Assembly (NCBI GenBank): GCA_963803785.1
Contig: CAWDNM010000006.1
Location: 760,135-824,134 of the forward strand
From: an uncultured Coriobacteriia bacterium
Lineage (GTDB): Bacteria; Actinomycetota; Coriobacteriia; Anaerosomatales; JAAXUF01
DNA length: 64,000 nucleotides
Direction: 5' to 3'
Part shown: positions 10,057 to 38,502 of the stretch, in pieces
How the letters are laid out: every line of letters begins with the position of its first letter
How positions within the stretch are numbered: the first letter of the stretch is position 1
Program-made: the position numbers and the translations under genes
Notes under the pieces: model-generated
What the model saw: only the letters and a program-made list of their open reading frames with translations
Databases searched by the model: none
Told to the model about the DNA's origin: nothing

Positions 10057-10065
10057 CTCCGGCTC
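10045..10065 (+). terminator. hairpin overlapping the kinase stop codon
   Basis: GAGCCGGAG-TGA-CTCCGGCTC is a perfect 9-bp stem whose 3-nt loop is the stop codon. There is no clear U-tract. Confidence 0.4.
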
Positions 10066-10085
10066 ATTCGGACTGAAGGATCATC

Positions 10086-10985: not shown

Positions 10986-10992
10986 GCCCGAC

Positions 10993-11412: not shown

Positions 11413-12497
11413 CACCGCGCGCCAAACAGAGCTGGGCAGCGCTCACCGACATCGGTCGCGTCCGAACCCACAACGAGGACAGCGTGCTCGCGCAGCCGCC
11501 GCTGTTCGTGGTCGCCGACGGACTCGGCGGGCACGAGGCCGGCGAGGTCGCGAGCTCGATCGCGGTCGAGACGCTGCGCGATCACGCGCCGAGGCGCCCC
11601 GACGCCAAGGCCCTCGCCCGCGCCGTGCGTCGGCCAACCGCGAGGTCATCCGAGCCGCGCGCGAGGGCTACGGCAAGCAGGGCATGGGCACGACGATGAC
11701 CGCAGCGATCGTCGAAGGTAACCACATCGCGCTGGCCCAGGTGGGCGACTCGCGCGCGTACCTGCTGCACGCCGGCCGGATCTCGCGCATCACCGAGGAT
11801 CACTCGATGGTCGCCGACATGATCCGCCGAGGCCAACTGACCGAGGCCGAGAGCCGCACGCACCCCAACCGCAGCGTCATCACCCGCGCGCTGGGCACCG
11901 ATGCCAACATGACCGCCGATCCCTACGAGTTCGACGCCGAGCCGGGCGACCGGCTGCTGCTGTGCTCCGACGGCCTTACGGCGATGCTCGAGGACGAGGC
12001 CATCGGCGAGGCGCTCGCTGCCTACCAGGACCCCGCGATCGCTGCCCGAATGCTCGTCGACGCAGCCAACGACGCCGGGGGTCACGACAACATCTCGGTC
12101 GTCATCATCGACATCGAAGGCGACGGCTCGCGGGCGGGCGCGACCGTCGACGCGAGCGGTGCCCGAGCCGGTCGTGGCCTGCTCGCGGTCATCGGCTGGG
12201 TACTGCTGTCTGGCGCTCATCGTCGGCGGCATCGCATACGGCAGCTATCTCTACGCGCGCAAGCAGGCGTTTCTCCAGGTGGGCCCGGGGGATGTCGTCT
12301 ACGTCTACCAAGGAGTGCCCGGGCAGATCGGCTCGCTGAAGCTGCAGTGGCTCGTCGAGCGCGACCGACCATCTCGATCGACGCTGCTCCACCCGCCGAC
12401 CAGGCAGACGCTGCGCGAGGGCATGCGGTTCGACAGCCTCGACGCAGCGCTCGAGAAGGCCCGTTCGCTCGAGCCGACGACCCAGCTGTTCCCCTAG
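11409..12497 (+). CDS. pstP: PP2C-family Ser/Thr phosphatase with C-terminal TM segment (2-3 frame changes)
   Basis: PP2C motifs [47 protein letters not shown] and [15 protein letters not shown] segment ([17 protein letters not shown]) and an extracellular tail are read from track ORFs 11229..11699, 11684..13123 and 12159..12497. Confidence 0.85.
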
Positions 12498-12506
12498 GGA
12501 CCGCCC

Positions 12507-13843: not shown

Positions 13844-13851
13844 CCGGCATC

Positions 13852-15279: not shown

Positions 15280-15437
15280 GACGAGGACTTCGGCGCCGCA
15301 TGGCGGCGTGAAGCCCCGCAGGTTCGGAACAACGCGGAGGCAACGCCGTGAGTCAGGCAGCCAACGAGTGTCGCAGGTGGTCTAGAATGTCGGCAGCGGG
15401 AATCATTCCCGCAGGTGAGTGAGCACGGGGGCGTGAC

Positions 15438-19451: not shown

Positions 19452-21172
19452 TTGACTGACAGCACCCCCAGGCCCAGGTCGCGCACGAAGCGGGAACGTC
19501 CGGCCTTCTCGGTGAATCGCTCGTGGCTCGCACTCGCAGCCGCGATCGCCGTCGTCGTTGTGGTGGCCGTGTTCTTCGTGGTGCGATCGACCGGCCCCAA
19601 GGGACCGATCGTGGTCGTCGACGCCGGGCACGGCGGCACGTACTCCAACACGGGCGTCGGCGGCATCAAGGAAAACGACCTGAACCTCGCCATCGCCAAG
19701 CGGCTGGCGAAGAAGCTTCGCTCGCGCGGCTATCGGGTGGTCATGACCCGTACCTCCAAGAAGAAGGTCGCCGAGGAGATCATCGCCAACTGGCGCTACG
19801 CCGGAGCGCCCGGCCGCACCTGGGCCTACGGGGCCGAGAAGACCCCGAGCGAGCAGGCTGCCGCCTCGCGAAGCGACCTGCAGGCTCGAGTCGACATCGC
19901 GAACGAAGCCGGCGCCGACGTGTTCGTGAGCATCCACAACAACGCATCGAAGGACGTCACCGCCCGCGGTACCGAGACGTTCGCCTACCGCGGCGATGCG
20001 CCCGGCAAGGCGCTCGCGGCATCGGTGCTCGACGCCATCGGGGCGCGTACCGGCGGCCTGACCCGCGGCTCGTTCGGCTCGGGACTCTACGTGTGCCGCT
20101 GGACGAACATGCCCGCCGTCCTGGTCGAAGGCGGGTACTTCACCAACGAAGAGGACGCCAAGGCACTGAAGTCCGGTCGCTTCCAGGACAAGCTTGCCGA
20201 GGGCATCGCGGACGGCATCGACCGGTGGTTCGTGACCTACCCTCTGCGCGAGAGAGAGCCACAGCTCGCAGCGGGGAATGCGGCCTCACTCGCCACCACG
20301 ACCTCAGCCGCCGCGTACCCGAAGGGGTCGCCGGTCGCCGTCTTGCTGCCCGAGAGCGCAACCGCGCTCGGCCCGTCCGCGAGCACGCTGGCCGCCAAAC
20401 TCGGCGCGCCGCTGCTGCTGACCGGCGGACAAGGACCTGTCGCCCGAGCTGATCGCCGAGCTCCAGCGGCTCATGCCCAGTCGCGTCATCATTCTCGGCA
20501 TCTCTAAGGATCAAGACATCGAGGCCATCTCAGCCGCGGTCACGGATGCGACCGGCTCGCGGGCCAGCATCGAGACGATCGCCGAGAACAACGCGCCGAG
20601 CGCAGCCTCGCTCGCCGCGGGATACATCACCATTCCCGACAGCGGCGAAGTCGTCATCGCAGACGAGGCCGACGCCGACGCGCTCGCGGCGCTCGCGCCC
20701 TACGTCGCACGCAAGCTCGTCCCGGTCCTGCTGGCCAAGGACGGGAAGCTGGGCGACGAGGGATCCGTGTTCTTGACTGCGAACAGCGGGCGGATCAAGA
20801 AGGTGCTCTCGATCGGGTGCGCCGAGCCCGCCGCCGAGCCCGAGGGCTGGCCGGTCACCGCCGTGAACAACACCGACCCCGACGCGCTCGCCGCGACCCT
20901 GCTCGCGCAGTACCGACCCCGCGAAGAGCAAGCGCAAGCTCAAGCCCGTCGCGGTCGATCCCGAGAGCGCGCCCAGCGTGTTCACGGCCGCCACGGAGGC
21001 CGCGCGCCGGAAGCAGCCGCTCGTGCAGGTCAGGGCCGGGATCCTGGGGCCGTACTCGCGCGAGTTCCTGGTGAACCGCACCGCGACCGTCAGTCGCTTC
21101 GTGCTGATGCGCGCCGACGGCTCGCTGCCGCCGGTCGCCGAGAGCGCGCTGTACAAGTCGGTCGGTCGCTGA
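19452..21172 (+). CDS. N-acetylmuramoyl-L-alanine amidase (Amidase_3) with C-terminal cell-wall-binding-repeat-like region (2-3 frame changes)
   Basis: TTG start and TM segment (WLALAAAIAVVVVVAVFFVV). Amidase_3 motifs IVVVDAGHGG, DLNLAIAKRL, ADVFVSIHNNA and VLVEGGYFTN. The C-terminal repeats resemble CWB2 units (LAAKLGAPLLLTGG..., VIILGISKD, ALAPYVARKLVPVLLAKDG). It ends at 21172. Confidence 0.8.
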
Positions 21173-21193
21173 CGCTCGGGCTACACTACGCCC

Positions 21194-22976
21194 GTGACCA
21201 AGAAGCAGCCCACCCCCTCCGAAGGCCCCTTCACCAGCGCAGCCTGGTGGCGCACGAATGCGCTCTACGTCGCGGGCGTCGCCATGCTCACCGTGCTCTC
21301 CGCGTTCTCCAAGGTCGTCAACCAGTTCAAGTTCTTCATCTATCCCGACTCCTACTACTACCTGCTCATCGCCCGAAACCTGCTCACCAACGGCCACCCC
21401 ACGGGCACGCTCGGCCCGGGCGGCATGCCGTTCCCGCCTCCCGGCTACGCCGCGATGAAGGCGACCTTCCCCATGCTCGCCGCCGCCGTCATGGCGTTCG
21501 GCCTCCCCGCCGAGCAGACCGGCCACCTGGTCTCGGGCGCGGCCGCGGTACTCGCGGTGCCGATGGCGTTCTTCGCGACGTGGCGGCTGCTTCGCTCCAA
21601 ACCGGCCGCGCTCGCGGCTGCCGCGTTGGTCGCGGTCTCGTACGGAGTCACGTACTGGGCCGGATTCGTGATGAGCGACTCAGTCTCGGTTCTGCTCGGC
21701 TTCGCCTTGCTGGCCGTGATCGCCAAGAGGCGTCCTGACGAGCTGAGCAACGCCGGCGACATCGGGGCGGGTGTGGTCGCGGCGTTCCTGCTGCTCTCGC
21801 GGCCCACGTACTTCGTGGCGCTTGCCGCTGCTGATATGGATGGGGTTCTCGGCGTTCGGCTGGACGTGGAAGCGTACGGCCACCTTCGCGGTGGGCTGCG
21901 CGCTGCCGGTCGCCGTGATCTCCGCGCTGTGGTTCCCGCCGCCCGCCTTCAGCGGGCGCATCCTGCTGCGCCTGCTGCCGGTGATCGCGGGGGCCGCCGT
22001 GGTCGCCCTGGTCGCCGTGCTCGTCATGCGCAAGCGCTCTGAGCAGGCAGCCGCTGCCAGCGGGTGGGGCGGCCTGACCCGCTTCGCGTACTACCTGCTC
22101 GCCGCCACGCCGCTGCTGGTCTATGCGGTGCAGAGGGCGTTCGTGCTCGCCGGGCGGACGAGTCCGTTCCTCGCGCTTGACCGGTTCGTGGCGCGAGACT
22201 ACGCGACGGTCGTGTTCCTCGTGGCGGGCGCGATCGCGCTCGACCTCGCCGAGACGCGCGAAGTCGGTGGGGCGTTGCTTGCTGCCGCGGCGGTTCTGCT
22301 CGGCGTGTACTTCTGGGTCGAGCCGAGAGACTCGCGCTACCTCATCCACCTGCTGCCGTTTCTGGTGCCGGTCGCGGCGGCCGCTGCGATGCTGCCGGGG
22401 CTCACGGCTTCGGGGGGCTCGGCGAAAGGTCGTTCGCGCGGGGGAGTGCCGACGTGGGCGCATGGCGTGTCGATCGCAGTGGTCGTGGCTCTGGTCTCGG
22501 CGATGGTGCTGCAGGGTTGGCGGGGCATGTCGCGCGCCGAGGCGTCGTTCCTGGCGACGGACTACCCGAGTGAGGTCGCTGCCGGAATCCGGCCGGTGCT
22601 CGGCTCCGACGGCGTGCTCGTGACAGCGCTCCCCTGGGCGATGCACTTCCGTACCGACCGCCCGGCATGGGCCGCCCAGGGCGCCTCGATCGAGCGGCTC
22701 ACCTCCTACGTCCCTGCCGATTCGACCGTGCTGTTCCTCGCTGACGCGTCCATGCGCGTTCACTACCCGAAGCTCGAGCGCGCGGTCGGCCGACAGTTCG
22801 CATCGCGCTCGCTCGTGTCGTTCACGGTCCCCGAGGAGTACCTGTACGGCTACTCGAGCACCGTGGACACGCAACCGGTGCAGGTCTACCGGCTCACCGC
22901 CTCAGAGCTACGCTCGCTCGTCACGAGCGATTCGACGTCTGGGCCCGATCTAACCACGCCGCCGCCCGTCAGATAG
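21194..22976 (+). CDS. polytopic membrane protein, GT39/ArnT-like glycosyltransferase candidate (one frame change near 21830)
   Basis: Track ORFs 21194..22042 and 21771..22976 join into a ~590-aa protein with 10 or more hydrophobic segments and an early DSYYY motif (FFIYPDSYYYLLIARNL), typical of GT-C enzymes. Functional assignment is by architecture only. Confidence 0.55.
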
Positions 22977-23101: not shown

Positions 23102-23845
23102 ATGCGCTCCTTGAACGCACGCCAGCTCGTGTTCGGTTTCATGATCGCTGCGGTCGCCGTGAGCGCGGTGGCCTACGCAGGAAGCTCGGCGCCGTGGGCC
23201 AGCGCGGCCTTCGCTATCGTCAGCATACCGAGCACGCCAGCCAAGCCGGTCGTCACCAAGGGACCGCAGACCACCCCCGACACGCTGCAGCTGGTTATCT
23301 CGCCAAACTCCGTGATCCCGACTCCTGCCCCCGACGCCTACGCAGTCACGTTCGATGGGGTCGAGTATCCTCCCCAGCCCGCCGTGGCCAGCATCCTCAC
23401 CACGACGTTCAGCCCGCTCATCCCCGGCTCCTCCCACCTGTGCACGGTGGTGGCATGGAACGGGTTCGGCCCGTCGGTCCCCACGACCTTCGCGGCCACA
23501 CTTCCCAAGGCCCCGGTATCGCTGAGCAAACCATCCGTGCCGTTGACCGGGAGGACCACTCGGTCGATCAAGGTCACCGGCAAGGTCGTCTCGGACTACG
23601 CTGTGGGTAAGGCGTCCGTCGTCAAGCTCAAGTTCTACCGACGCCAGAGGTCCAAGTCCGGCGCGCTGTACTGGAGCTACAAGAAGACGCTGACCGCGAA
23701 GCGATCGACGCCGGCGTCGGCCAGCTACTACGTGTACACCAAGCTGAAGCCCGCCGGCTCCTGGAGCGTGATTGCCCAGACGTACTCAACGGGTTCGCAT
23801 GTTGGAGCCAAGTCGGTGCGCAGCCGTTCCAGCAAGATCAAGTAG
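23102..23845 (+). CDS. secreted FN3-like protein with basic C-terminal stalk (family-related)
   Basis: Signal or TM segment MRSLNARQLVFGFMIAAVAVSAVAYA. FN3-like segment PAKPVVTKGPQTTPDTLQLVISPN...CTVVAWNGFGPS. The C-terminus SIKVTGKVVSDYAVGKASVVKLKFYRRQRSKSGALYWSYKKTLTAKRS..YYVYTKLKPAGSWSVIAQTY resembles the stalk of the 26-36 kb family. Confidence 0.7.
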   Translation: MRSLNARQLVFGFMIAAVAVSAVAYAGSSAPWASAAFAIVSIPSTPAKPVVTKGPQTTPDTLQLVISPNSVIPTPAPDAYAVTFDGVEYPPQPAVASILTTTFSPLIPGSSHLCTVVAWNGFGPSVPTTFAATLPKAPVSLSKPSVPLTGRTTRSIKVTGKVVSDYAVGKASVVKLKFYRRQRSKSGALYWSYKKTLTAKRSTPASASYYVYTKLKPAGSWSVIAQTYSTGSHVGAKSVRSRSSKIK

Positions 23846-23899: not shown

Positions 23900-25686
23900 T
23901 TACGCGTCAGTGAAGACGAAGCCCTGCTCCCGGAAGATCGTGAGACACGTTTCGACGACGGCGGCATCGAACAACTGACCGGCACCCCGCTCGACTTCGG
24001 CCAGAGCCGGCTCGACGCCGATTGCCGCTCGATACGGGCGGTGAGACGACATGGCTTCGACGACATCAGCGACCGCAAGCACCTTCGCCCCGACGAGCAG
24101 CTCGTCCTCACGCAGCCCTCTCGGATAGCCCGAACCGTCGCAACGCTCGTGGTGTTGGTAGACCATCTCGCTGATGGGAGCCTCCATGTTTGCCGACGCC
24201 AGAATCCTATAGCCCGCCTCGGCATGCTCCTTGATGAGATCGAACTCCATCACCGTGAGCTCACCCGGCCGACTCAGTATCTCGGCCGGCACGGAAATCT
24301 TGCCGACGTCGTGGATCAGCGCCGCTATCCGGATCGCCTCGATCTCGTCGGCGGGCAGGCCCATCTCCTCGGCGATGCGCATCGCGAGTTGCGAGACACG
24401 CCGCTCGTGGCCCGCCGTGTAGGGATCCCGTGTCTCAACGACCTGGCCCACGACCTCGATGATGGATGAGAGCGACTGCGCAAGTCTCGCTTCGGCCTGC
24501 TTGCGCTCGCTGATGTCGCGATGGAAACCCAGGACGTAGGTCTCCTCGCCGGCAACTACCAGGTTCGCCGTGACCTCGATGGGGACCAGCTGCCCGTTCT
24601 TGCAGAAGTGCTCAACCTCAAACGTCATCGGTTCGCCGGCGAATATGCGCTGAAGCCGCTCGGGCGCCAGCCGAGCGGTTTCGGGTGAATCGAGGGCGGC
24701 GAGGTCCATCGAGAGCATTTCCTCGACAGTGTATCCATGCATGTCGGCCATGGCGGCATTCACGAATCTGATCGTCCCATCGGGAGCCAACAGGAAGATG
24801 CCGTCCGCCGCACCTTCGAATACCGCCCTGAACCGTTCCTCGCTCTCGAGCAGCGTGTGCTCCAGCTCCTGCATGCCCGTCATCTTCGCCACCAACGAGA
24901 TCTTCATGTTCTCGATGGCGTGGGTGAGCGTGCCGACCTCGTTGTTCGGGTGCTCGATGGTCGCGTCGAACTCTCCGCGCTCGACCGCCTCCGCGTAAGC
25001 CACGCCCGACCTCAGGCTGCGCCGAATACTCAGGAGCACAGTGATGCCGATGACCGCGGTGATGAGGACGCCGGCGACGGCGACAAGCATGAAGGAGGTG
25101 GTCGACCGTCTCTCGAGAACGGCGATGCGCTCTCGCTGCTTGACGAGCGCTGCCTTGACGAGCGCGTCGGTTGCGTCCAGCTCGCGCTCCATCAGCTTAC
25201 GGGTGTCACGCAGCTCGGCCTCTCGACAGGTCACGGGCGGCGTCGTGCGCAGCCCTGTCGTTGCTCTCCACGGCCGCGGTGGCAAGCGCAAGATACTCAT
25301 CATGCTGCGCGGACCACTTCTTGTACTCGGCGGAGAACCTGTCGAATGCCGCCTGCACCTCGGCGTCCTTGTTCGGGATGGCATACCAGGCTGCGAACTG
25401 ATCATCGATCGACTTCTGAGCAGCGCCCATGTCCTCGATTTGCTTCTTGAGGTACTCGACGTCGTAATCGACCAGGATCGTCTGGTCTTGCAGGCGAAGA
25501 TCGGTGATCGCGTAGTTGATCCGCGTGAGCGTGTGCGCCATCGGCTCGCCGGTGGTGTACACGGCGTCCCATGCCGCATTCACACTGCCCACGGCCCGAG
25601 TGCCGGAGTAGGCGAGGCTCACGATGGCGGCGATGCTCAAGGTGCCCAGCAGAAGGAGCACTACCGTGATCGATGACTTCTTCAAG
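23900..25686 (-). CDS. membrane sensor with four-helix-bundle periplasmic domain, HAMP, PAS and HD-GYP phosphodiesterase domains (one frame change near 25230)
   Basis: HD-GYP motifs are HDVGK and HHERCDGSGYPRGL. The PAS region is SEERFRAVFEGAADGIFLLAPDGTIRFVN. The TM/HAMP region is FMLVAVAGVLITAVIGITVLLSIRRSL. The N-terminal part is in track ORF 25206..25877 (LKKSSITVVLLLLGTLSIAAIV, TTG start at 25686). Confidence 0.85.
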
Positions 25687-25897
25687 GCGGCTCCCTTCTT
25701 GTCTGCAGGGATGGCCGGAATCCGCGAGCCCGGCTCGCGCGACCCGTTACAGCACATTAAGCATACTCCGAGAGGCACGCGCCGTGACCTCCGCCGCCGT
25801 GGGCGCCAACCAGAGTCGTCTCGGCAGGGCAACACGAGAGGCGGCCATCCGCTATCGGATGACCGCCTCGCGAGCAAGCCCGTCAGGTTCCGAGCGC

Positions 25898-26140
25898 TAC
25901 TTCACCGTGACGTAGTCGAACCCTCGCGACCAGGTCTTCGCGTGCCCGCTGTCGGCCGGAGCGTAGGCGCGCAGGCGCCACTTGCCGCGCGAAGTGAGCT
26001 GCACACTCGCCTTGTAGCGAACTCTCACCGTTGCCCTGGTCGCCCGAGGAGTCCACACTCACTCGAATCGTGGTCCCTGCGACTCGGTCCCTCACGAAGG
26101 TATCCGGCACCGTGTTGGTGTCGCCAGCGACGAAACTCCA
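25898..26140 (-). pseudogene. deletion remnant of the secreted family: one PD40 blade fused to the terminal module
   Basis: One frame reads RYVAFHSNWSFVAGDTNTVPDTFVRDRVAGTTIRVSVDSSGDQGNGES. A second frame then reads VRVRYKASVQLTSRGKWRLRAYAPADSGHAKTWSRGFDYVTVK-stop (TAG at 25898-25900). No signal peptide or start codon. Confidence 0.6.
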
Positions 26141-26149
26141 GTTCGAGTG

Positions 26150-26649
26150 GAAGGCAACGTAACGCCTATCTTCAAGACGTCGGCCGGCAAGCGGCTCGGC
26201 GGGAAGACGGTCTACCTCTATCGCGACGGTCATCGAGTGGCGTCCAAGAAGACCAGCTCCAAGGGTGTCGTGAGATTCAGTTTCAAGCAGGTCCGTCGCC
26301 CAGACACCAAGTGGCAAATCAAGTACAAGGGCAGCTCCACGTACCGCCCGTCGGCTCGGCCACGAAGACCACGAAGACTCACTACCACCTTCCGAGCGCG
26401 TGGGGCTCGGCCTGGTGGGCGCGACCTACCGAAAGCAAGTCACCGTGACGCAGGATCCGCGGTGCATACGGCGTCGAATTCTGGCAGCCGATGTGCGTCA
26501 CCATCAAGCGCGGTGTGGTGGTGGTGGCTGAGAGCACTGTCCCGGTCCTCAAGTTCGGATTCACCGCATCATCGGCCGGCAACTATGTCATCGACATGTG
26601 GATGCCGCAGAGCTCGGGGCCTAGTACGGGCCTCTGCTACGTCTACTAG
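26150..26649 (+). pseudogene. 5'-truncated, disrupted fragment of an Ig-like/stalk-containing secreted protein
   Basis: The fragment starts abruptly head-to-head with the previous remnant: GKRLGGKTVYLYRDGHRVASKKTSSKGVVRFSFKQVRRPDTKWQIKYKGSSTYRPS. After a frame change and an in-frame TGA at 26446-26448 it reads AYGVEFWQPMCVTIKRGVVVVAESTVPVLKFGFTASSAGNYVIDMWMPQSSG..CYVY-stop (26647-26649). Confidence 0.5.
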
Positions 26650-26764
26650 GAAGCGCTCGGCCACTACGCACCAAGCGCCTCCGTAGATCAGGGCCGCTCG
26701 ATACACGCGGAGGGGCCGCCCGTCGGGCGACCCCTCGCAATAGCATCTGCGAAGATTCCGAGAA

Positions 26765-28063
26765 CTACCAGCGAGCCTTCAGGTACTCGAACTTGGAGTT
26801 GCCCACGCCTCGGCGGTAGGCGCGCATCTTCCAGCGGCCACCAGTGGACAGGACCACGCTGCGGGTGAAGCGCCCTGCGGAATCCGGTGTCGCCTTTACG
26901 GAGCCCTTGTACACCCACTTGCCTTGGCTTGGACTGTAGCGGTGCAAGCGCAGGTACACGGGGCGGCCAGCACTCTTGGCGCCCGCCGACATGCGACCAC
27001 GCACCTTGAACCGCTTGTCTGAGTCGACGACTGACGGGGCGCTGGGTGCCGCTGCCACGACCTTGGGCACTGCACGTACGACCGCGCTCTCGCTCATTCC
27101 CCACTCACCGTCGCCCCAGTACAACGCCTTGAAGTACATGGGCTTGTCGGGAGCGAACTTGACCACGGCCACGCCCGTCTCGGTCTCTTTGGGCACGTAC
27201 TTCCAGTGATCCTTGTCGGCCGAGTAGAACAGCTTGAGCGTGCGCCCGCCTGTGATGAGCGCCCCGGCGGGGTCGGTCAGCTTCAGAGTGAAGGCGATCG
27301 GCGTGCCGTAGTACGGAGTGAGCGTATTGGCGCGGAGCCTGATGACTGGCCGCTTGCGTGCCTCGACGAATACGTCGGGGACCGGCGCACCGGAGGTCGG
27401 GGCCTTGGCGTGGAACTCGATCTGTGCGCTTTGGCCGGGTTGAAGGACGGCCGGGGCATCCCACGACCACACGGCATCGACGAAGTTCGCGCCGTTGCGC
27501 TCGACGCCGATCAGCTCGATGGACGAGACGGGGAAAGCGGCGGTGTTGGTCACCGTCGCGACGTACGAGCGCAACTCAGGGGTTGGATCGACGGTCAGAG
27601 CGGATATCGTGTTGGCGTCGCCGCCCAGCTTTGAGACTGCATCGACCCGCAGCCGAAGCGCCGTCCGATCCGTCTGATAGCCGCACGCCGTGACAACAGC
27701 GGTCCACGTGGTGGGCACGCTCTCGGGCCAGCTCAGGTGAAAGGTCGTCCAGTCACCGGGAGTCATGCCGTCGGCACGCGGCCACGCCTTCTCGGGGTCA
27801 CGCTGAGGGTCTTCGAGCCATGTGACCTCAACGACCGGGCAGTTCACGTTGACGGTTGATTCATTGGAGATGATGCCATCAAGATAGCGCGCGTCGCCGT
27901 AGTCATAAGCGGCTGTGGCCTCAACCGAGAGTGCGACACCCTTGTCGCAGACATCCTGCACAGACCCCCCGTACGCCGGCGACGCCAGCCCCGCGAGAGC
28001 CACGACGAGGCATGCTGCGAGTCCCGCGACGGCGACTCGGAAACGCCTACTCCTGCTCTGCAT
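26765..28063 (-). CDS. secreted protein with tandem beta-sandwich domains and family-type basic C-terminus
   Basis: Track ORF 26765..28159. Start placed at MQSRSRRFRVAVAGLAACLVVALAGLASPAYG (28063) after GGGAGGGG. Ig-like unit IAFTLKLTDPAGALITGGRTLKLFYSADKDHWKYV. The tail is RFKVRGRMSAGAKSAGRPVYLRLHRYSPSQGKWVYKGSVKATPDSAGRFTRSVVLSTGGRWKMRAYRRG. Confidence 0.8.
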   Translation of the reverse strand: MQSRSRRFRVAVAGLAACLVVALAGLASPAYGGSVQDVCDKGVALSVEATAAYDYGDARYLDGIISNESTVNVNCPVVEVTWLEDPQRDPEKAWPRADGMTPGDWTTFHLSWPESVPTTWTAVVTACGYQTDRTALRLRVDAVSKLGGDANTISALTVDPTPELRSYVATVTNTAAFPVSSIELIGVERNGANFVDAVWSWDAPAVLQPGQSAQIEFHAKAPTSGAPVPDVFVEARKRPVIRLRANTLTPYYGTPIAFTLKLTDPAGALITGGRTLKLFYSADKDHWKYVPKETETGVAVVKFAPDKPMYFKALYWGDGEWGMSESAVVRAVPKVVAAAPSAPSVVDSDKRFKVRGRMSAGAKSAGRPVYLRLHRYSPSQGKWVYKGSVKATPDSAGRFTRSVVLSTGGRWKMRAYRRGVGNSKFEYLKARW

Positions 28064-28294
28064 CGGATCCCCTCCCTTCGATTCTCGGGCAGCGGACTGC
28101 CCGGACATGGTGAGAGATGTATCGGCATCGGCCGGAGGACGGTGTGTGCGCCCCCTCACGTTGTCGGGGAATGCGCTGTGACTTCCGTCACATCTGCTGA
28201 TGCTTCTGCTGTGTTCTCGCCGTTCGCTCGGCGACAGGGAAGCGGCCGCCCCTATCGGGACGACCGCCTTGAACTCGCGATCCTAAGCGACCAA

Positions 28295-30283
28295 CTACTT
28301 CACCGTCACGTAGTCATAGCCGCTCGACCACGCCTTCGCATGCCGGCTGTCTGCCGGTGCGTACGCCCTCAGACGCCATTTGCCGGCCTTGGACAGGCGG
28401 ATCGACTTCTTGTACTTCGTGTAGCTCCTGTAGTTGTACGCCTTGGCCTTCACGTAGCCGTACTTCTTCCACTTGCCCGAGGAGGTCTTCTTCCACTTGT
28501 AGATGCGGATGGGGTAGGTGCCCTTCGTGTGCCGCGGCTTGAGGTACCCGTACACCGTCTTCGAGCGACCCTTCGTCATCCGTGACGGCGCTTTGGGAGT
28601 CCCGACCGACGGACGTGGCGTGACCTGCCGCGCATCGCTGACCGCCGATCCATACTCGACCTTGGGATCTTCGAACCGCGCCCGGTAGTACGTCTTCGAC
28701 GTCGGTGCGGCGAGCACGGTGAACGAACCGGTGGCGTCCGTCAGTGCGGTCAGTGGGGTGTCGGCCCATGGCCCGCTCGCACTCGTCGACATCTGAAGTC
28801 TGACCAGCTTGCTCGGAAGAGGGGTAGTTCCCGTGGTCAGCTTGCCGGTGAACGTGTACTTGGCTCCGTACTTGGACAGCGTCTTCGAGGAAGACGTCAC
28901 CGCCAGCGCGCTCTCCCCCTTCATGCGATCTCGCACGAAGACATCGAGCTTCCCGTTGATATCGGGAACCAGACTGCTGACGGAGTTGAATGCCACGTAG
29001 CGCCCGTCCGCCGAAACCGACGGCCGCTCGCTGTCACTGTCGCCTTGGACGCCCGCGTTGGACACGCTGATCCGAACCGTGTTGCCGGCCTCCAGATCGT
29101 GCGCGAATACATCCCTCTTGCCGTTCGTGTCGCCCGGCACGAGGTTCGCCGAGGATGACTCGAAGACCACGTGCTCGCCGTCCGCCGAGACTGTGACCTT
29201 GCGGCAGTACCCGTCGCCCTGTGCTCCACCGGAGGAGACGGACGCGCGCTTGAACTCCCCGCTCTCCAGATCGAGCACGAAGGCGTCGCTCATGCCGTTC
29301 GTGTCGTTCGGCACCAGGTTCGACGCCGTCGAGGCGAAGGCGACGTGCTTGCCGTCCGGCGTGATCACGGCCTCGTCAGTGTCGTCGTTGCCCTCGGCCC
29401 CGCTGGGCGACGCGCTCAGGAGCTTGGTGGTGTTGAACTGCAGGTCGCGAAGATACGCGTGATACCTGAAGGGGACGGTACCGCCATCGATCAAGTTGTA
29501 CGAGTCCGAGTAGAACACGGCGTAGCGGCCGTCTTGCGAGATGCTGGGGAACCACGCCGCGCCGTTCCCCTCCACGCCACCCTTGCCGACGCTCAGGCGG
29601 GTCGTGGTGCCCTTGACCAGGTCGCGCACGAATGCGTCGGTATTGCCGTTCTTGTCACCGGCAACGAGGTTCGTAGCGTCCGACTCGAACGTGACGAAGC
29701 GGCCGTCCGCTGAGATGTGCGCCTCGTAGCTCGCGCTGTTTCCCTGCTCGCCCGCCGATGAGACGCTCGCGCGCGTCGTTTCACCGCTGTTCAGATCGCG
29801 AACGAAGACATCGATCTGGTCGTTCGTGTCACCGGGCACGAGGTTGGATGCCGCCGAGTAGAACACGACGTGCTCTCCGTCGGCAGACATGTCTGCATAC
29901 CAGCTGTAGCCGCCGCCCTGCGCCCCGCTTGATGACACGCTCGCCCTAATCGTTTCACTGGTCTCCATGTCGCGAACGAACACATCGTGTTGACCGTTGG
30001 TATCGCCAGACACGAGGTTGGTCGCATCGGAATGGAACGCCACCATGCGACCGTCCGCTGAGATGCCGCACGCCTTGCTCTCACCGTTGGCTTCCACGCC
30101 GGTGGAGGACACGCTTGCCCTGACCAGCGTGTTGTAACCGGTGTAAGAGCCTGCTGCCGCCAAGCCGGCCACAGCGAACGCTAGCGCGACGGTCACCCCC
30201 GCAGCAATCCACCGGACCCTCCGTCGCGCCCCGGAACCGGACGCTACCGCAGATGACGAACCGACGTGCTCCCTGCGACTCAT
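28295..30283 (-). CDS. secreted seven-bladed PD40/TolB-like beta-propeller protein with Ig-like stalk and conserved terminal module
   Basis: Intact 662-aa ORF. Signal or TM segment RVRWIAAGVTVALAFAVAGLAAAGS. Seven ~58-aa repeats follow, e.g. RASVSSSGAQGGGYSWYADMSADGEHVVFYSAASNLVPGDTNDQIDVFVRDLNSGET. An Ig-like unit is followed by the terminal module ...VYGYLKPRHTKGTYPIRIYKWKKTSSGKWKKYGYVKAKAYNYRSYTKYKKSIRLSKAGKWRLRAYAPADSRHAKAWSSGYDYVTVK. Confidence 0.9.
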   Translation of the reverse strand: MSRREHVGSSSAVASGSGARRRVRWIAAGVTVALAFAVAGLAAAGSYTGYNTLVRASVSSTGVEANGESKACGISADGRMVAFHSDATNLVSGDTNGQHDVFVRDMETSETIRASVSSSGAQGGGYSWYADMSADGEHVVFYSAASNLVPGDTNDQIDVFVRDLNSGETTRASVSSAGEQGNSASYEAHISADGRFVTFESDATNLVAGDKNGNTDAFVRDLVKGTTTRLSVGKGGVEGNGAAWFPSISQDGRYAVFYSDSYNLIDGGTVPFRYHAYLRDLQFNTTKLLSASPSGAEGNDDTDEAVITPDGKHVAFASTASNLVPNDTNGMSDAFVLDLESGEFKRASVSSGGAQGDGYCRKVTVSADGEHVVFESSSANLVPGDTNGKRDVFAHDLEAGNTVRISVSNAGVQGDSDSERPSVSADGRYVAFNSVSSLVPDINGKLDVFVRDRMKGESALAVTSSSKTLSKYGAKYTFTGKLTTGTTPLPSKLVRLQMSTSASGPWADTPLTALTDATGSFTVLAAPTSKTYYRARFEDPKVEYGSAVSDARQVTPRPSVGTPKAPSRMTKGRSKTVYGYLKPRHTKGTYPIRIYKWKKTSSGKWKKYGYVKAKAYNYRSYTKYKKSIRLSKAGKWRLRAYAPADSRHAKAWSSGYDYVTVK

Positions 30284-30319
30284 GCTGACACCCTCCCTCT
30301 CGGTGGACGCTCGTGCGCG

Positions 30320-30966
30320 GCTCCGCCCCCGCCGCCTACTTCACCTTCACGTAGTCGTACTTGCTCGACCACGCCGCAGCGTGACCGGCGTCCGCCACCG
30401 CGTAGGCCCGCAGACGCCACGTGCCCTTGTACTTCAGGCGCATCTTCACTGAATACTTCGTGTAGCTGCTGTAGTTGTACGCCTTCGCCTTCACGTAGCC
30501 GTACTTCTTCCATTTGCCCGAAGAGGTCTTCTTCCACTTGTATATGCGCACCGGATACGTGCCGGCCGTGTGCTTCGGCTTGAGCGTGCCCCAGACGGTG
30601 TATGACTTCTTGCTCGACATCTTCGAGCGCGCGATCGGGGTGCGCACGTAGGCGCGCGGCAGGACCGAGATGGCGGTGCTGAGCGTGGACTCGTACTCAG
30701 ACGGCATACCCGCATACCTCGCCCGGTAGTACGTCTTGGTGGTCGGGACGACGGGGATTGAGAAGCTCCCGTCTGCTGCGGTTGTTGCGCTGAGCCCGGT
30801 GTCGACGAACACGCCACTCGCGCTCGTCGACGACTGCAGATTGATCTTCTGGCCCGGCACGCCGGTTCCGCCCGCGGTGAGCTTGCCCGTGAACGCATAG
30901 GACTTGCCGTACGCCGAGAGGGTCGAAGCACCCGAGGTGCGCGTGAGCGTGGTGGCCTCGGCGACG
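30320..30966. repeat. copy 1 of a ~647-bp near-identical direct repeat (3' ends of two adjacent paralogs)
   Basis: By eye, 30320-30966 matches 32365-33012 base for base apart from a handful of differences (offset 2045 bp). It covers the Ig-like stalk, the terminal module, the stop codon and ~16 nt downstream. Confidence 0.9.
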
Positions 30967-32329
30967 GGCGTCGTTTTGCGCATGAAGACGTCGGCCTTCA
31001 CGTTGGTGTCGCCTGCGACGAGGTTGTCGGCATATGAACTGAAGAGCACGACGAGCCCGTCAGCAGAGATGGCGGAATCGTAGCTGCCAAGCGAGCCGCT
31101 CTCGCTCTGCGCTCCCGATGTCGAAACGCTCGCGCACTTCGTGACTCCCGCACTCATGTCGCGGACGAAGATATCGTCGAGGTCGTTGGTGTCGCTGGCG
31201 ACGAGATTGGAGGACTTGCTGTCGAAGGCGACACAACTCCCGTCGGCCGAGATGGCGGGATCGAAGCTGTCGGCGTCACCCCGTGCGCCCGCCGATGAGA
31301 CGCTGGCGAGCGTGGTCTTGGATGAAGCGAGGTCGCGCACGAAGACATCGGTGGCGGCGTTGTTGTCACCAGCGTCAAGGTTTGTGGCATCCGAGCTGAA
31401 AGCGACCCGCAGCCCGTCTGCCGAGATAGCGGAGTAGTAGCTATCGCCGTTGCCGCGCACTCCAGCTGACGAGACGCTGGCGAGCGTCGTCTCATCAGAA
31501 GACATGTCGCGCACGAACACGTCGGCCGCCCCGTTGGCGTCAGATGCGACGAGGTTCGACGCGTACGACCAGAATGCGACGTAGCGGCCGTCGGAGGAGA
31601 GAGAAGGCGCATAGCTCGAGCCATTCGCCTCCGCTCCGGCCGGCGAGACGCTCAGGCGCATAGTCTCGCCGGACTGCCGGTCCAACACGAAGATGTCAGG
31701 CCCGCCTCCGGTGGTGTCATCGGCAACTAGGTTCGTGGCGAGCGACTCATAGGCAATGAAACGCCCATCCGCCGAGATGACCGGCGCGCTGCTCGAGCCG
31801 TTGGCCTCGACGCCGGCCCCTGCCGTGCTCACGCGCGTCGTCTGCCCCAACACCATGTCGCGCAAGAAGATGTCCGTTTTCGCGTTCGTGTCGCCCGCAA
31901 CGAGATTCGTAGCGCCCGAGCGGAAAACGACATAGCGCCCATCGGCCGAGATTGAGGCCTTGGAACTCGCGCCGTTTCCCTGCTCTCCGGCCGAAGAGAC
32001 GCTGGCCCGTGCAACCCCATCCGATTGCACGTCTCGCACGAAGACGTCTGCACCCCCGCGGTGTCCCCATGGACGAGATTCGCCGCCACAGAGTCGAAGA
32101 CGACGTAGTGACCGTCGGCGGAAATGGCGGGTTGGTAGCTGTCGCCATCGCCCTCACTATGGTCGACCGAGACGCTCAGGCGATCGTGGTCTGAACGAGC
32201 ATCGCGCTCGCGGGCAGTGCCAACCCGGCCCACACGACCGTCGTCGCGGTCACGATGCGCCGCTACCCAAAGGGACCGCGCGCCCTTCGTCGAATTCCCC
32301 GCCGTGACACTCCGCCTCATTGAGCGCAT
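30336..32329 (-). CDS. secreted seven-bladed PD40/TolB-like beta-propeller paralog (frame changes near 32045 and in the signal peptide)
   Basis: Track ORF 30336..32039 plus the N-terminal piece in 31829..32359. Blades such as ARASVSSAGEQGNGASSKASISADGRYVVFRSGATNLVAGDTNAKTDIFLRDMVLGQT. The signal peptide is only readable (IVTATTVVWAGLALPASA) after two compensating indels. The C-terminal module is identical to that of the next gene. Confidence 0.85.
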
Positions 32330-32364
32330 GCCATTCCCTCTCTCGATCAACCCTCTCACGAACG

Positions 32365-33012
32365 GCTCCGCCCCCGCCGCCTACTTCACCTTCACGTAGT
32401 CGTACTTGCTCGACCACGCCGCAGCGTGACCGGCGTCCGCCACCGCGTAGGCCCGCAGACGCCACGTGCCCTTGTACTTCAGGCGCATCTTCACTGAATA
32501 CTTCGTGTAGCTGCTGTAGTTGTACGCCTTCGCCTTCACGTAGCCGTACTTCTTCCATTTGCCCGAAGAGGTCTTCTTCCACTTGTATATGCGCACCGGA
32601 TACGTGCCGGCCGTGTGCTTCGGCTTGAGCGTGCCCCAGACGGTGTATGACTTCTTGCTCGACATCTTCGAGCGCGCGATCGGGGTGCGCACGTAGGCGC
32701 GCGGCAGGACCGAGATGGCGGTGCTGAGCGTGGACTCGTACTCAGACGGCATACCCGCATACCTCGCCCGGTAGTACGTCTTGGTCGGTCGGGACGACGG
32801 GGATTGAAGAAGCTTCCGTCTGCTGCGGTTGTTGCGCTGAGCCCGGTGTCGACGAACACGCCACTCGCGCTCGTCGACGACTGCAGATTGATCTTCTGGC
32901 CCGGCACGCCGGTTCCGCCCGCGGTGAGCTTGCCCGTGAACGCATAGGACTTGCCGTACGCCGAGAGGGTCGAAGCACCCGAGGTGCGCGTGAGCATGGT
33001 GGCCTCGGCGAC
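32365..33012. repeat. copy 2 of the ~647-bp near-identical direct repeat
   Basis: See 30320-30966. This copy differs by small indels (GGTCGGTCGGGAC versus GGTGGTCGGGAC; GATTGAAGAAGCTTCCGTC versus GATTGAGAAGCTCCCGTC) that break the frame, and by one substitution near 32997. Confidence 0.9.
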
Positions 33013-35577
33013 GGGGACGACCGTGATCGTCACCATGGCCACATTGGACTCCAGCGCGCCGTCTTCCGCGCGGTACGTGAACGTGTCGGTGCCGTGGAAG
33101 CCCGCGTTCGGCGTGTATATGTAGGCGCCGTTGGTCGAAAGCGAGAGCGAGCCATGGGCCGGCGGGTCCACGAGATCGGCGGTCAGCGCATCGGTGTCCA
33201 CATCCGTGTCGTTGCCGAGCACTCCGGGCGCTGGCACCGTGAGTGCCGCGCCTTCGTTCACACTCGCCGCGTCACCGAAGGCGACGGGAGCGTGGTTCTC
33301 GGAGTACTGGAGCGTCACGCTCTTGAGCTCCGGAGACAGAACGCCATCGGTCTCGAGGCGCACGACGATGTCGATGTAGTCAGCTTCGTCTAGCGCGCTC
33401 AGATCGGTTCTCGCCGAGGCATCCGTGACCGCACGGCCTAGGTAGTTGCCGGTTCCGGTCGCCCAGTCGATTGGATTCCCGTCGTAGCCGAGCGGCTCGG
33501 TCCAGGTGATGCCGTCATCGGAGCGCCTGACGGCGAACTTGACGGCCTCGAAGGCCTGAGGAGCGACGTTTCGGCATCCAGCCTCGTCCAGGCTGCCAAC
33601 TCGGACGGCCTCTCTGCACGCAAGCCGACTGCCGAACCGCCGCCGCCGATAGTACCGATCCTGTTGCCGGAGGCCGAGAAGGCCAGCCATGCCGCGGTAT
33701 CGGTCTGACCGCCGTTGTTGAGGCCTGCTGCCACCACCGAGCCATCGGACTTGAGGCCCACAGTGTGGAACCCGCCCCCGCCTACGGCCACGATATCGCT
33801 CCAGCCCGAGACATCAAGCTGGTCGGATTCGTTGAGCCCAACTGCCACGACGGTCCCGTCGGACTTGAGGCCCACCGTGTGGTAGTCGCCCGCGCTCACG
33901 GCGACGATGTTGCTCCAGTCGGACAGGGAACACTGGTCGTAATTGTTCAGCCCCACTGCTACTACTGAGCCATCGGCCTTGAGGCCAACCGTGTGGTAGG
34001 CACCTGCGCTCACGGCCACGATATCGCTCCAGCCGGATACGGAGCATTGGCCATAGCCGTTCTCGCCCGTTGCCACGGCGGTGCCGTCGCCGTTGAGCCC
34101 TACCGTGTGCACGTCACCCGCGCTAACAGCCCTGAGGCTACTCCAGCCGCTGACGTTCAGCTCCCCATAGGTGTTCTCGCCCACAGCGACTGCAGTGCCG
34201 TCGCGTCTGAGACCGACCGTGTGCCGACCGCCCGCACTTACGGCCGCGATGTCGCTCCAGCCTGATACGTTGCGCTGGCCGTAGACGTTCTCTCCCACAG
34301 CGACCGCAGTGCCGTCGCGTTTGAGGCCGACCGAGTGGGAGTAGCCCGCGCTCACGGCCGCGATGTCGCTCCAGACTGAAACCACGGACTGCCCGAGATC
34401 GTTCTCGCCCACCGCATATACGGTGCCGCTGGACCGGAGGCCCAGCGTGTGGCGGTTCCCCGCCGCCACCTCAACGATGTCGCCCAGGCCGAGGTGTTGC
34501 GCTGTTGCGAGGCGTTGTCCCCGACGGTCACAACCGAACCGTCAGCCTCCAGACCCACGGAATGAAGGGCGCCAGCCGCAGCGGCGGTGATTCCGTCCCA
34601 GCCAGAGACATTGCGCTGGCCCATGTCATTCCAGCCCGCGGACACGACCGTGCCGTCCGACTTGAGGCCCAGCACGTGATAGTAGTTGGCGTCCACGGCG
34701 ACGATGTCAGTCCAGCCCGTGACGTCGCACTGGCCGTAGCCATTGCCCCCGTCGGCCACAACCGTACCGTCGGAACGCAGGCCGACCGTGAAGTCGCTGC
34801 CGGCGGCTATCGCGATGACGTCGGTCCAGCTCGCCGCATCGTCCCAGTCCGGGTAAACCGATCCGGTCACTACGACCGTCCCATCGGAGTTGAGGCCGAC
34901 TGTGCGGGTCTCACCCGCGGCGATTGCCTTGATGCCAGTCCATCCTGAGACGTTGCACTGATTCGACGATCCGTTTTCGGTGGAGCCGGTCGCCACGACG
35001 CTGCCATCGGCCTTGAGACCCACCGTATGGTTGAGCCCAGCAGCGACCGCGACGATGTCGGTCCAGCCGGTGACGTTCGCCTGGCCGTACGCGTTGTAGC
35101 CAGTCGTCGCTACCGCGTGACCGTCGGATGTGAGGCCCACCGTGTGGTAGTAGCCTGCGGCGATCGTCGTGATGTCGCTCCACCCAGAGACCTCGAGCGG
35201 CCCGAAGTGGTTGTCGCCCACTGCAACGACAGTCCCATCCTCTTTGAGGCCCACCGTGTGGAGAAGCCCGCCGCGACCGCCTTGATCGGCCCCGGGAGCA
35301 TGACGCTGCCCGGAGCACGGCCCGTCGACGCTCCGGAGATGGTCGTCGTCTCGCCCGTGCTGGCAGCGTTGGTCGCGAAGTCCGCCTGCGTGTCCCACGT
35401 CATCGAGTTGAGTGAGGCAGAGGCCGGAGCAGCCCCGGTGAACGCGAGACTGAGCAGCATCACCGCGAGCAACGAGATCGCCAGCGGCCTCACCGCTCCC
35501 CACTGCGCCCGAACGTGCGGAACCCGAGACTGAAGTGCGCCCATGGCTGACCCCTGCATCTGCCCTCTGCTATGCAA
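32381..35577 (-). CDS. secreted RCC1-repeat (double beta-propeller) protein with cadherin/VCBS-like domain, Ig-like stalk and conserved terminal module (about 4-5 frame changes)
   Basis: Signal peptide VRPLAISLLAVMLLSLAFTGAAPASA. About 13 RCC1-like blades follow (AAGYYHTVGLTSDGHAVATTGYNAYGQANVTGWTDIVAV..., AGDYHTVGLKSDGTVVAVGLNESDQLDVSGWSDIVAV). Next is NHAPVAFGDAASVNEGAALTVPAPGVLGNDTDVDTDALTADLVDPPAHGSLSLSTNGAYIYTPNAGFHGTDTFTYRAEDG. The stalk and module are the same as in 30336-32329. Pieces are in track ORFs 35110..35577, 34352..35503, 33438..34469, 32536..33690 and 32381..32752. Confidence 0.85.
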
Positions 35578-35700
35578 AGGGCGAGCGGTAGACGACTCAG
35601 AGCGAGGAGTAGAGCCCCCCGACCCTAGGATTCACAATACCACCTCGGTCGAAGGGCCGAACTCCACTCACGGTGCCGTCGCGTACCAAGCCGGCCGGGC

Positions 35701-35763
35701 TATTTCACCTTCACGTAGTCGTGTCCGCTGGACCATGCCGAGACGTGCCCGCTGTCCGAAACT
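35701..35763 (-). pseudogene. orphan 3'-terminal scrap of the family module
   Basis: Reads ...CPVSDSGHVSAWSSGHDYVKVK-stop (TAG at 35701-35703), homologous to the last ~20 residues of the module. Nothing recognisable lies upstream. Confidence 0.55.
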
Positions 35764-35916
35764 GGGCAGGTCGTCGGCCGCAGCCGAGTGCGCCAGTGCA
35801 TCCTATAGGTCCGGCCTCTCCCTGAGGGTTGCAGGGCAACCCACCACGACGAGTCAGCGCCATGTCTCCCCCGCAACCATCCTCCGCGCTACAATACCGA
35901 CTGCCCCACAGAGGGG

Positions 35917-37037: not shown

Positions 37038-38502
37038 CTACGGGCGGGATTGCCCTTCTGTGTTTGCGGCGATCATCTCCCTGAGGTTGGGCGACGGCAC
37101 GAACAGGAACTTCCGGCCCGCACGCTGCTGGAGCAGGTAGCCGGCTTCCGTCAAAGACAGCAAGTCCGCCCGTGCGGTGGCGTAGGCGACGGCATGAGAA
37201 GCCGCATGGGACTCCATCGTGACCTGCACGCTCGGATCCTTGAGCGCACGGATCAGCACGGCGCGCTGGCGGTGATTCAGGCTGAGATCGCGCTTGAGAC
37301 TCTTCTGGAGCCGACCGTCCTCCTCAGACTTCCTACTCATGTACTCATGCAGCTCTTCTATCGCCTGCTCGATCGCGTGGAGGTTGAACGTGACGAAGTA
37401 GGTCATGTCGCAATCGTCTTGCTCGGAGTAGAGGTATGCCTTGTCGTACTGCCCTCGCCTGCCGAGGATGACGCGCGAGATTGCCAGGTACTCGAACAGC
37501 CAATAGCCCCGTTTCAACATATATAGGTAGAAGAGTGCTCTCGCCGTCCGTCCGTTGCCGTCCACGAACGGGTGGAGATAGGCCAGCCAGAAGTGGAGCA
37601 CGATCGCCTTGAGAACGGGGTACTCGAAATCGCCATCGTCGTTGTTCGCGTAGTTGCACAGGGCGATGAGTTGAGGCTCTATCTCGCTCGCGTGTGGCGG
37701 CGTGTGAAGAATCTCCATCCTTGCGTCATCGGCCACCACGACATCGTCATCGGCGGTTCTGAACCGGCCTGCGTCAGCATCGTTGTCGAGAGTTCCCTCC
37801 GTCATCGATTCCTGGAGCGTACAGATCATCTCCGGGGTGATCGGCTCGGCGAGATATGCCTTCATCTTCTGGATGGTGGTGAAGTTGTTGAGGATCGATC
37901 CGCTCCGGGCGATCGGCCGGCTGCCGACCCGTTCTAAGCATCTCCTTGGCGACTCGTGTCGTGGTCGAAGCGCCCTCGATCTGACTGGATGCGATCGCCT
38001 CTTCCATCAGTGAGTTCACGAGGAAGCGCTTCTGGTTCTCGGCAGGAATGCCGCCGCTCTCCATAGTCACGGTGCCACCCGCGCGCTTGTCGACCACATG
38101 GAGGCACCGGAGCACCTCGGGCGTGAGCGAATAGGAGAAGGGATGTCCGTTCACATCGACCACGCGTGTATCGCGGCGATCGAGCGCTCTAGAGAGCTTC
38201 AGGAGGAACCAGGCAACCTTGTGGTCGAAGCCCGTGGGGAGCGTGAGGTACTTGAACTTGTCCCAATACAGGTAGTCTTCGTTTGCGCGCCGCAGGATGT
38301 CGCGAAGAATGGGATTCTGCGCGAACGACAGTGCATCGCCTAGACTCAGGTTTGCACTACCGAGGTCCACGCTCGGAGCGGGTTCGAGCGAACGCTGCTT
38401 CAAAGTAACCCCCGAAATATCAATCGGCCCGTGTGTTGATAGTAGCACGACTACCGATGATCCGACCTGGTTCTCGGCGACGCGAAGTCGATTCGCGCGC
38501 AC
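37038..38502 (-). CDS. Fic-family protein (AMPylase/adenylyltransferase family), one frame change near 37900; start uncertain
   Basis: Canonical Fic motif HPFVDGNGRTARAL in track ORF 37038..37865. The N-terminal domain is in 37774..38502 (ILRDILRRANEDYLYWDKFKYLTLPTGFDHKVAWFLLKLSRAL...SSQIEGASTT). The C-terminal part looks like a winged helix (LNHRQRAVLIRAL). Confidence 0.85.

Follow-up and report, generated by a model that had tools for sequence, protein, structure and literature searches.

Basic C-terminal units such as GW (SH3_8, PF13457) in Listeria InlB and Ami and SLAP (PF03217) in Lactobacillus S-layer and S-layer-associated proteins keep secreted proteins at the cell surface via anionic (lipo)teichoic acids. 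In Bacteroidota, proteins with diverse heads carry at their extreme C-terminus the C-terminal domain of the type IX secretion system (T9SS; Por_Secre_tail), an immunoglobulin (Ig)-like beta-sandwich of ~80-100 amino acids (aa). The ligand of the SH3-8/GW units is given as peptidoglycan and/or lipoteichoic acid and has been termed controversial (PMC5817068). In the CWB2 Cwp family (PF04122) of Clostridioides difficile, varied heads, amidases and proteases among them, are joined to a common non-covalent anchor unit of ~90 aa per domain, and the WxL proteins (PF13731) of Lactobacillales and Bacillales, whose genes are often clustered, combine a signal peptide with a C-terminal domain that binds the wall non-covalently (both PMC5817068). 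Here we describe an array of four genes in a 64,000-nt stretch of DNA (hereafter the window) from an uncultured Coriobacteriia bacterium (assembly GCA_963803785.1, contig CAWDNM010000006.1, positions 760,135-824,134, forward strand). Their products end in a common pair of Ig-like domains, a "stalk" followed by a ~90-aa "module." This module is an unnamed, abundant and lineage-restricted Ig-like C-terminal domain that probably falls within the known class of non-covalent surface anchors.

One of the closest functional parallels is the CWB2 Cwp family, in which many secreted heads likewise share one unit and this unit binds an anionic wall polysaccharide. By contrast with CWB2, the module has no sequence match to that family, is predicted to be an Ig-like beta-sandwich, usually occurs as a single copy rather than a triplet, and is found in metagenome-assembled genomes (MAGs) of Actinomycetota. 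It also lacks the WxL motif pair and any Pfam match to WxL, is shorter (~90 aa versus 120-190 aa) and far more basic, and no cognate membrane-protein partner was seen for it. Similarly, there is no sequence match to GW or SLAP, and the predicted fold is Ig-like rather than SH3-like. The T9SS domain is also an Ig-like beta-sandwich, but no T9SS model matches the module, which can be tandem or internal and has a strongly positive charge that is not a T9SS-domain trait; moreover, its hosts, as Actinomycetota, probably have a single membrane and no T9SS.

The gene array and its shared C-terminal unit

The four genes are consecutive on the minus strand at 26765-35577, within an array region at 25.9-35.8 kb, and are best explained as tandem paralogous genes for Sec-exported proteins. 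All have the same layout, consisting of a signal peptide, an acidic head that differs among the genes, and the C-terminal stalk and strongly basic module, which is rich in Lys, Arg, Tyr, and Trp:

26765-28063 (-), gene 1: intact open reading frame (ORF), secreted; stalk at 27056-27433, diverged module at 26807-27067
28295-30283 (-), gene 2: intact, 662 aa, secreted; 7-bladed PD40 propeller, stalk at 28601-28966, module at 28298-28618
30336-32329 (-), gene 3: PD40 propeller, stalk at 30642-31034, module at 30339-30659; frame-broken toward the 5' end
32381-35577 (-), gene 4: signal peptide, RCC1 repeats at ~33440-35300, Big_9/cadherin at ~33022-33297, stalk at 32687-33048, module at 32384-32704

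A hidden Markov model (HMM) of the module, built from metagenomic homologues and reaching 106 positions in matches, picked up the module of genes 2-4 with E-values from 4e-51 (gene 2) to 2e-48, and that of gene 1, which has diverged, with E 2e-10. The stalk HMM also matched all four genes, at E ≤4e-28 in each of genes 1-3 (4e-28 in gene 1 and 2e-39 in gene 2) and in two pieces, at E 5e-21 and 1e-8, in gene 4. A first-pass annotation, made from the sequence alone, had proposed that the C-terminal parts are conserved and comprise an Ig-like stalk and a shared module, and the two models bear this out for all four genes, gene 1 with its diverged module included.

The head of gene 1 has no Pfam match. 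Those of genes 2 and 3 matched PD40 (PF07676) in Pfam at E 9e-15 and 2.5e-14, respectively, and their repeats recur every 174 nt (58 aa); seven blade ends of the form D[VIA]F-x-[RLH]D are visible in translation, in agreement with the seven ~58-aa PD40/TolB-like blades previously assigned to two of the genes. In gene 4, for which about 13 RCC1-like blades and a cadherin/VCBS-like domain had been described, Pfam identified 14 RCC1_2 stretches in two sets of seven (E 2.6e-58 and 2.4e-46), along with Big_9 (PF17963, E 4.5e-22), Cadherin_5, and Cadherin_4 (PF17892, PF17803). Beneath the heads of genes 3 and 4 lies a nearly identical cassette:

30318-30968 (-), cassette copy A, in gene 3: stalk, module, and 18 nt beyond the stop
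32363-33015 (-), cassette copy B, in gene 4: extra bases at 32786 and 32807 break the frame

Over 651 bp the two copies differ by 2 substitutions and 2 one-base insertions. Their identity begins precisely at the head/stalk junction, beyond which the heads are unrelated (PD40 versus RCC1 plus cadherin). The stalk-plus-module cassette has thus recently been duplicated, or copied by gene conversion, from one gene to another that bears a different head. The earlier proposal that exchangeable heads sit on a common C-terminal unit finds tangible support in this.

The first-pass annotation had left it as a check whether the module is an already characterised domain. No named family matched it in Pfam-A 2025, NCBIfam 20.0, or PDB sequences, and a Pfam search with 37 isolated modules stayed empty even with the E-value cutoff raised to 5. 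Conserved residues of the module include H30, R82, R84, D90, and W97 (numbering of the broad alignment A1). The module homologues are all named 'hypothetical protein' in their sources, and the literature searched gives no account of such a domain. We also considered whether the module could be a diverged stalk; this was rejected, as profile-profile comparison matched only 8 linker residues that had been placed in both profiles.

AlphaFold2 predicted an all-beta structure for the module alone (pLDDT 96) and a structure of strands only for the stalk plus module (pLDDT 95, pTM 0.85). In these models the stalk and the module both have an Ig-like beta-sandwich fold, and the high scores for the pair suggest a rigid two-domain unit. 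Foldseek comparisons (module model against PDB and BFVD, stalk-plus-module model against PDB) matched Ig V-type domains, the sulfite oxidase C-terminal domain, CARDB, and complement MG domains at TM 0.4-0.57. These are generic Ig-like matches without a functional lead; the structure prediction that had been suggested thus returned a confident beta-sandwich, and the fold search no match informative of function.

The same models would be compatible with a structural or oligomerisation Ig-like domain that does not anchor at all, serving as an aid to folding or solubility or as a basic tail that associates with the acidic heads of neighbours. Consistent with this, the fold matches are only generic, the stalk and module are predicted to be rigidly coupled, and acidic heads could interact with a basic tail. 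However, the best module matches across different MAGs are ~60-85% identical, a degree of conservation unusual for a spacer, the terminal position of the module is nearly invariable, and the module accompanies wall-acting enzymes and PASTA domains and even forms a protein of its own. We therefore regard a purely structural role as unlikely.

Family size, taxonomic range, and architectures

The module family is large. Among 1.84 billion representatives, the module profile retrieved 2212 representative clusters at E ≤1e-3 and 447 at E ≤1e-30, the match nearly always reaching the last residue of the protein. The scan of species-representative genomes used a tighter alignment (A2), so that close relatives alone were sampled; all 24 genome loci with close module relatives belong to uncultured MAGs, nearly all of which are labelled Actinomycetota, and the labels 'Eubacteriales' and 'Deltaproteobacteria' among them look like mislabelling or mis-binning. 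Module hosts include HGW-Actinobacteria-7, Thermoleophilia UBA2241 (an order-level lineage reported from permafrost), Coriobacteriia-labelled MAGs, and MAGs of Microflora Danica (MFD), and the domain occurs several times per genome. One 12-kb contig binned as 'Deltaproteobacteria HGW-22' (locus L021, PHAZ01000108.1) has a stalk sequence identical to that of HGW-Actinobacteria-7 (L022, PHET01000005.1) and was probably mis-binned, its origin being actinobacterial. Module genes also form tandem arrays in other genomes, L017 having three and L003, L007, and L014 two each.

The heads of full-length relatives are diverse and include Polysacc_deac_1 with PASTA, RCC1 with PASTA, and Peptidase_S8 (subtilase) with PPC and Big_9, as well as FG-GAP, NHL, SBBP, BNR, PD40, LRR_5, beta-helix, and PGAP1-like heads. 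In 66 long representatives we counted 52 Pfam families, and the 25 commonest, which were listed, are all of extracellular types. A hydrophobic, signal-like segment is present at the N-terminus of most full-length members, and no member has a hydrophobic segment at the C-terminus. The first-pass annotation had noted that a module borne mostly by cytoplasmic proteins would speak against its surface role; the carriers are instead signal-peptide proteins with extracellular-type heads.

Several proteins contain 2-3 modules in tandem, among them P0045, which consists of a signal peptide and three modules and nothing else. In P0168, the module lies directly upstream of an NlpC/P60 peptidoglycan hydrolase domain and is hence internal. 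These architectures bear on whether the module could be a C-terminal secretion or sorting domain that is recognised and then removed by a dedicated machinery, much as the C-terminal domain of T9SS or a propeptide of PPC type is. Such a role would fit the location of the module at the very C-terminus, seen in almost all of the 150 best representative matches, and also the predicted Ig-like beta-sandwich and a size near that of the T9SS domain. However, a cleavable tag is disfavoured because the module occurs in tandem and, in one case, ahead of NlpC/P60, and because it is predicted to be a folded Ig-like unit of 85-90 aa that lacks a hydrophobic helix. In addition, searches of Pfam and NCBIfam gave no match to Por_Secre_tail, TIGR04183, or another sorting model, and no conserved processing gene was seen adjoining the module genes at the neighbourhoods examined. 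Cultivated Anaerosomatales isolates have a Gram-positive type wall (PMC9686372), although these are the only cultured relatives checked and their closeness to the MAGs considered here is not established. Overall, a removable sorting domain seems very unlikely.

A conserved Met (P-x-A-P-x-x-M) lies right before the module, and gene callers emit 'orphans' of 93-151 aa on frameshifted contigs, as in the following calls, whose upstream head ORFs encode CARDB, Big_9/cadherin, and polysaccharide deacetylase:

L026:10001-10282, orphan module call
L028:10001-10282, orphan module call
L001:10001-10456, orphan module call

The 93-aa stand-alone module proteins of L026 and L028 begin at this Met, 165-235 nt 3' of a head ORF, and were rejected as real genes; the numerous 93-aa module orphans in sequence databases are artefacts of this kind. 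Both contigs are long-read in style, and the L001 contig, from a related sample, is full of split genes.

A candidate wall anchor and its alternatives

In a set of 23 proteins, the module has a net charge of +12 to +25 (mean +17.5) and an isoelectric point (pI) of 10.2, whereas the heads have a mean charge of -28 and a pI of 4.75; in composition, the modules of this set are 18% aromatic and 22% Lys plus Arg. Known means of surface retention were sought in the window genes and their relatives. No Pfam match to SLH, CWB1, CWB2, LysM, WxL, SH3b/GW, SLAP, SPOR, or PG_binding was found in the four window genes, nor with these models in 20 genome relatives or in the 37 isolated modules (E up to 5), and none of these models is among the 25 commonest Pfam families of the long representatives. 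An LPXTG-like motif is absent from genes 1-3, and a C-terminal helix was not detected in any of 27 proteins (maximum Kyte-Doolittle value in a 15-aa window ≤0.45 in the last 60 aa). Strings of the form LP[SYH][AST]G do occur inside the module of L008, L011, L012, L014, L020, L024, and L025 (e.g., LPSTG in L012); they mimic LPXTG, and they sit ~30 residues before the end, within the fold and without a helix after them. For lipoproteins, the lipobox [LVI][ASTVI][GAS]C is found neither in gene 2 nor in the single-frame part of gene 3 (30336-32039), and in gene 1 residues 15-18 read LAAC; as the hydrophobic stretch extends beyond them to an A-x-A-like site, this is probably not a lipobox. The absence of LPXTG, lipobox, SLH, and CWB2 signatures reported earlier therefore holds for LPXTG followed by a helix, for SLH and CWB2, and for the lipobox in gene 2, whereas gene 1 retains a doubtful LAAC.

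The architecture, fold class, family size and taxa, presence on exported proteins, charge asymmetry, lack of known anchors, and recent cassette sharing are shown by the data, whereas wall binding, its ligand, and surface retention are inferred. Our favoured reading, to which we give an even chance, is that the module is a previously unnamed, non-covalent wall-anchoring domain. Once the protein is exported, its cationic module would attach to peptidoglycan itself or to an anionic component of the wall, for instance a glycopolymer with phosphate or uronate groups, whether teichoic-acid-like or of another kind, while the stalk would keep the head (a propeller, a protease, or a wall-modifying enzyme) at a distance from the wall. 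Paralogues would arise by duplication, and recombination or gene conversion would move the stalk-plus-module cassette among genes with different heads. A wall-polymer anchor fits because of the charge split between module and head, the attachment to peptidoglycan deacetylase-type enzymes, NlpC/P60, and PASTA, and the tandem-module proteins. A binding or anchoring domain is favoured over a sorting tag because the module is predicted to be folded and autonomous, is repeatable and strongly cationic, and occurs on exported proteins without a conventional anchor. The first-pass annotation had offered wall-polymer binding and a sorting tag side by side; charge, wall-acting heads, and tandem copies fit the former, while the latter is weakened. 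In L028, a gene for a TagF-type CDP-glycerol glycerophosphotransferase (Glyphos_transf; L028:1-1026), ~9 kb from the module-bearing gene, hints that this lineage makes teichoic-acid-like polymers.

Several points weigh against wall anchoring. The fold is generically Ig-like, with TM ≤0.57 to any PDB entry and no hint of a ligand, and basic charge by itself is no proof of wall binding. Most members have one module each, while many known anchors act as repeats. The presence of an anionic wall polymer in the host is an assumption, and anchoring as such is a computational deduction. Furthermore, genes 3 and 4 are frame-broken in the assembly, and their expression is not to be assumed.

A cationic, aromatic-rich composition would also suit an adhesin or a domain of carbohydrate-binding type that attaches to anionic material outside the cell, for example extracellular DNA, polysaccharides from plants or microbes, or the surfaces of minerals or humic matter. 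The carriers come from soil, peat, and groundwater MAGs, and their protease, lipase-like, and beta-helix heads are typical of secreted degradative enzymes, both of which are consistent with an external target. However, the deacetylase, NlpC/P60, and PASTA heads act on the producer's own wall and no carbohydrate-binding module (CBM) family was matched, and we consider binding of external material quite unlikely.

Frame breaks, flanking features, and a possible surface-display system

Both intact genes, 1 and 2, have a GGGAGGG-type ribosome-binding site and a hydrophobic signal-like N-terminus; a signal peptide is also present in gene 4 and, out of the main frame, in gene 3. All four had been described as genes with a signal peptide and a GGGAGGG-type ribosome-binding site, which stands for genes 1 and 2 but needs amendment for genes 3 and 4, as these are not single ORFs. 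Gene 3 is in one frame at 30336-32039, with its first blade and signal peptide in two further frames (at least 2-3 frame changes around 32040-32330). Gene 4 is in five ORF pieces with four frame changes, and these are collinear, at ~50% identity, with an intact 1055-aa protein of another genome (L020). Ordinary genes of the window are equally frame-broken (stretches 2836-6487, 10086-11232, 11684-14978, and 23900-25877): an AcrB/MMPL-type resistance-nodulation-division (RND) transporter is in at least three ORFs, FhaA is in two halves, and the PP2C, RodA, and PBP genes are in fragments. A sensor-HAMP-PAS-HD-GYP signalling gene is likewise broken, near 25206-25579. Because essential genes of the same window are similarly broken, the frame breaks of genes 3 and 4 are probably long-read assembly errors and not biology, and phase variation or pseudogenisation was rejected as the default explanation. 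Nonetheless, the two one-base insertions in the duplicated cassette lie outside homopolymers, so that they may be real mutations.

Decayed copies border the array on both sides, and two looser relatives lie further off:

25900-26170 (-), remnant: a module's 3' half (25900-26043) that runs into part of a PD40 blade (~26027-26170)
35703-35771 (-), remnant, just upstream of gene 4: final 23 module residues (…SDSGHVSAWSSGHDYVKVK-stop)
23102-23845 (+), loose relative: signal-peptide protein of 247 aa whose basic C-terminus (23516-23821) weakly resembles the module
1439-2839 (+), loose relative: beta-propeller-repeat protein ending in a stalk-like Ig domain at 2444-2683

The remnant at 25900-26043 covers module HMM positions 59-106 (E 4e-20), its blade part being identified by three-frame translation and tblastn with gene 2, and that at 35703-35771 covers positions 84-106 (E 3e-5). 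A third scrap had been proposed at 26150-26649, but no significant stalk or module match was found there; a plus-strand translation at 26177-26335 (…GKRLGGKTVYLYRDGHRVASKKTSSKGVVRFSFKQ…) resembles an inverted stalk-type Ig domain, with a stalk HMM E-value of just 0.44. The kinship of the two looser relatives had been overstated. The protein at 23102-23845 has only its weak C-terminal match (module HMM E 0.005-0.01, positions 3-99) and no Pfam or NCBIfam match, and that at 1439-2839, which matches NCBIfam beta_prop_Msarc (E 7e-15), is stalk-like (stalk HMM E 1e-8) but has no module (module HMM E 0.4).

The broken frames of genes 3 and 4 and the truncated remnants at both ends could also mean that no functional system exists here, the array being a set of decaying pseudogenes or an artefact of assembly, and the duplicated 651-bp cassette may mislead long-read polishing. 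Given that genes 1 and 2 are intact, that equally frameshifted essential genes of the window point to sequencing error, and that short-read MAGs hold intact homologues of every architecture, we consider this highly improbable.

Upstream of the array, at window positions 8261-17000, is a pkn/fhaA/fhaB/pstP/rodA/pbpA cluster that is conserved in Actinobacteria, and positions 12513-15255 have 75% DNA identity to HGW-Actinobacteria-7 (L012). In L012 (cluster at 431-3157) and L026 (cluster at 1-4937), too, module genes follow the fhaA-rodA-pbpA cluster, a few kb further downstream. Between this cluster and the array, at 19452-22976 (+), a gene for an Amidase_3 protein (N-acetylmuramoyl-L-alanine amidase) precedes one for a large polytopic membrane protein without a Pfam match, in two overlapping frames (21194-22042 and 21771-22976), which may be a wall-glycan-related transferase. 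On the other side, the window contains a Fic/DOC-family protein at 37038-37865 (-), a 514-aa HEAT/PBS-lyase repeat protein at 56014-57558 (+), and, at 57663-63803 (-), a DUF499 protein with a Swt1-like HEPN (1047 aa) adjoining a DUF1156 methylase-like protein (765 aa), which looks like a restriction-modification or defence pair. The GC content is ~0.69-0.72 at 8-22 kb, 0.63-0.66 over the array, and 0.59-0.63 beyond 36 kb, where the array borders a lower-GC region that is gene-poor or fragmented. Promoter and terminator scans were uninformative, and no tRNA genes or Rfam matches were found in the whole 64-kb window.

It is possible, though doubtful, that the stalk and module together are the targeting device of an unrecognised surface-display system in soil and subsurface Actinomycetota, with a lineage-specific anionic wall glycopolymer as ligand. 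Such a system would display dozens of enzymes and propeller proteins per genome, and its heads would be captured by cassette recombination beside fhaA-pstP-rodA-pbpA. It is proposed as a functional parallel to SLH with its secondary cell-wall polymer and CWB2 with polysaccharide II (PSII).

Naming the module domain would fix the spurious 93-aa 'orphan' annotations in frameshift-rich long-read assemblies. Should the module prove to be a wall anchor, this would make it a new class among the few non-covalent surface-display domains of Gram-positive-type bacteria, and the first such anchor domain for largely uncultured actinobacterial lineages (Thermoleophilia UBA2241- and Coriobacteriia-labelled MAGs and their relatives). 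With 2212 representative clusters at hand, the surface proteomes of these bacteria would then be predictable from metagenomes, and the module would provide a handle for heterologous display or for cell labelling in environmental samples.

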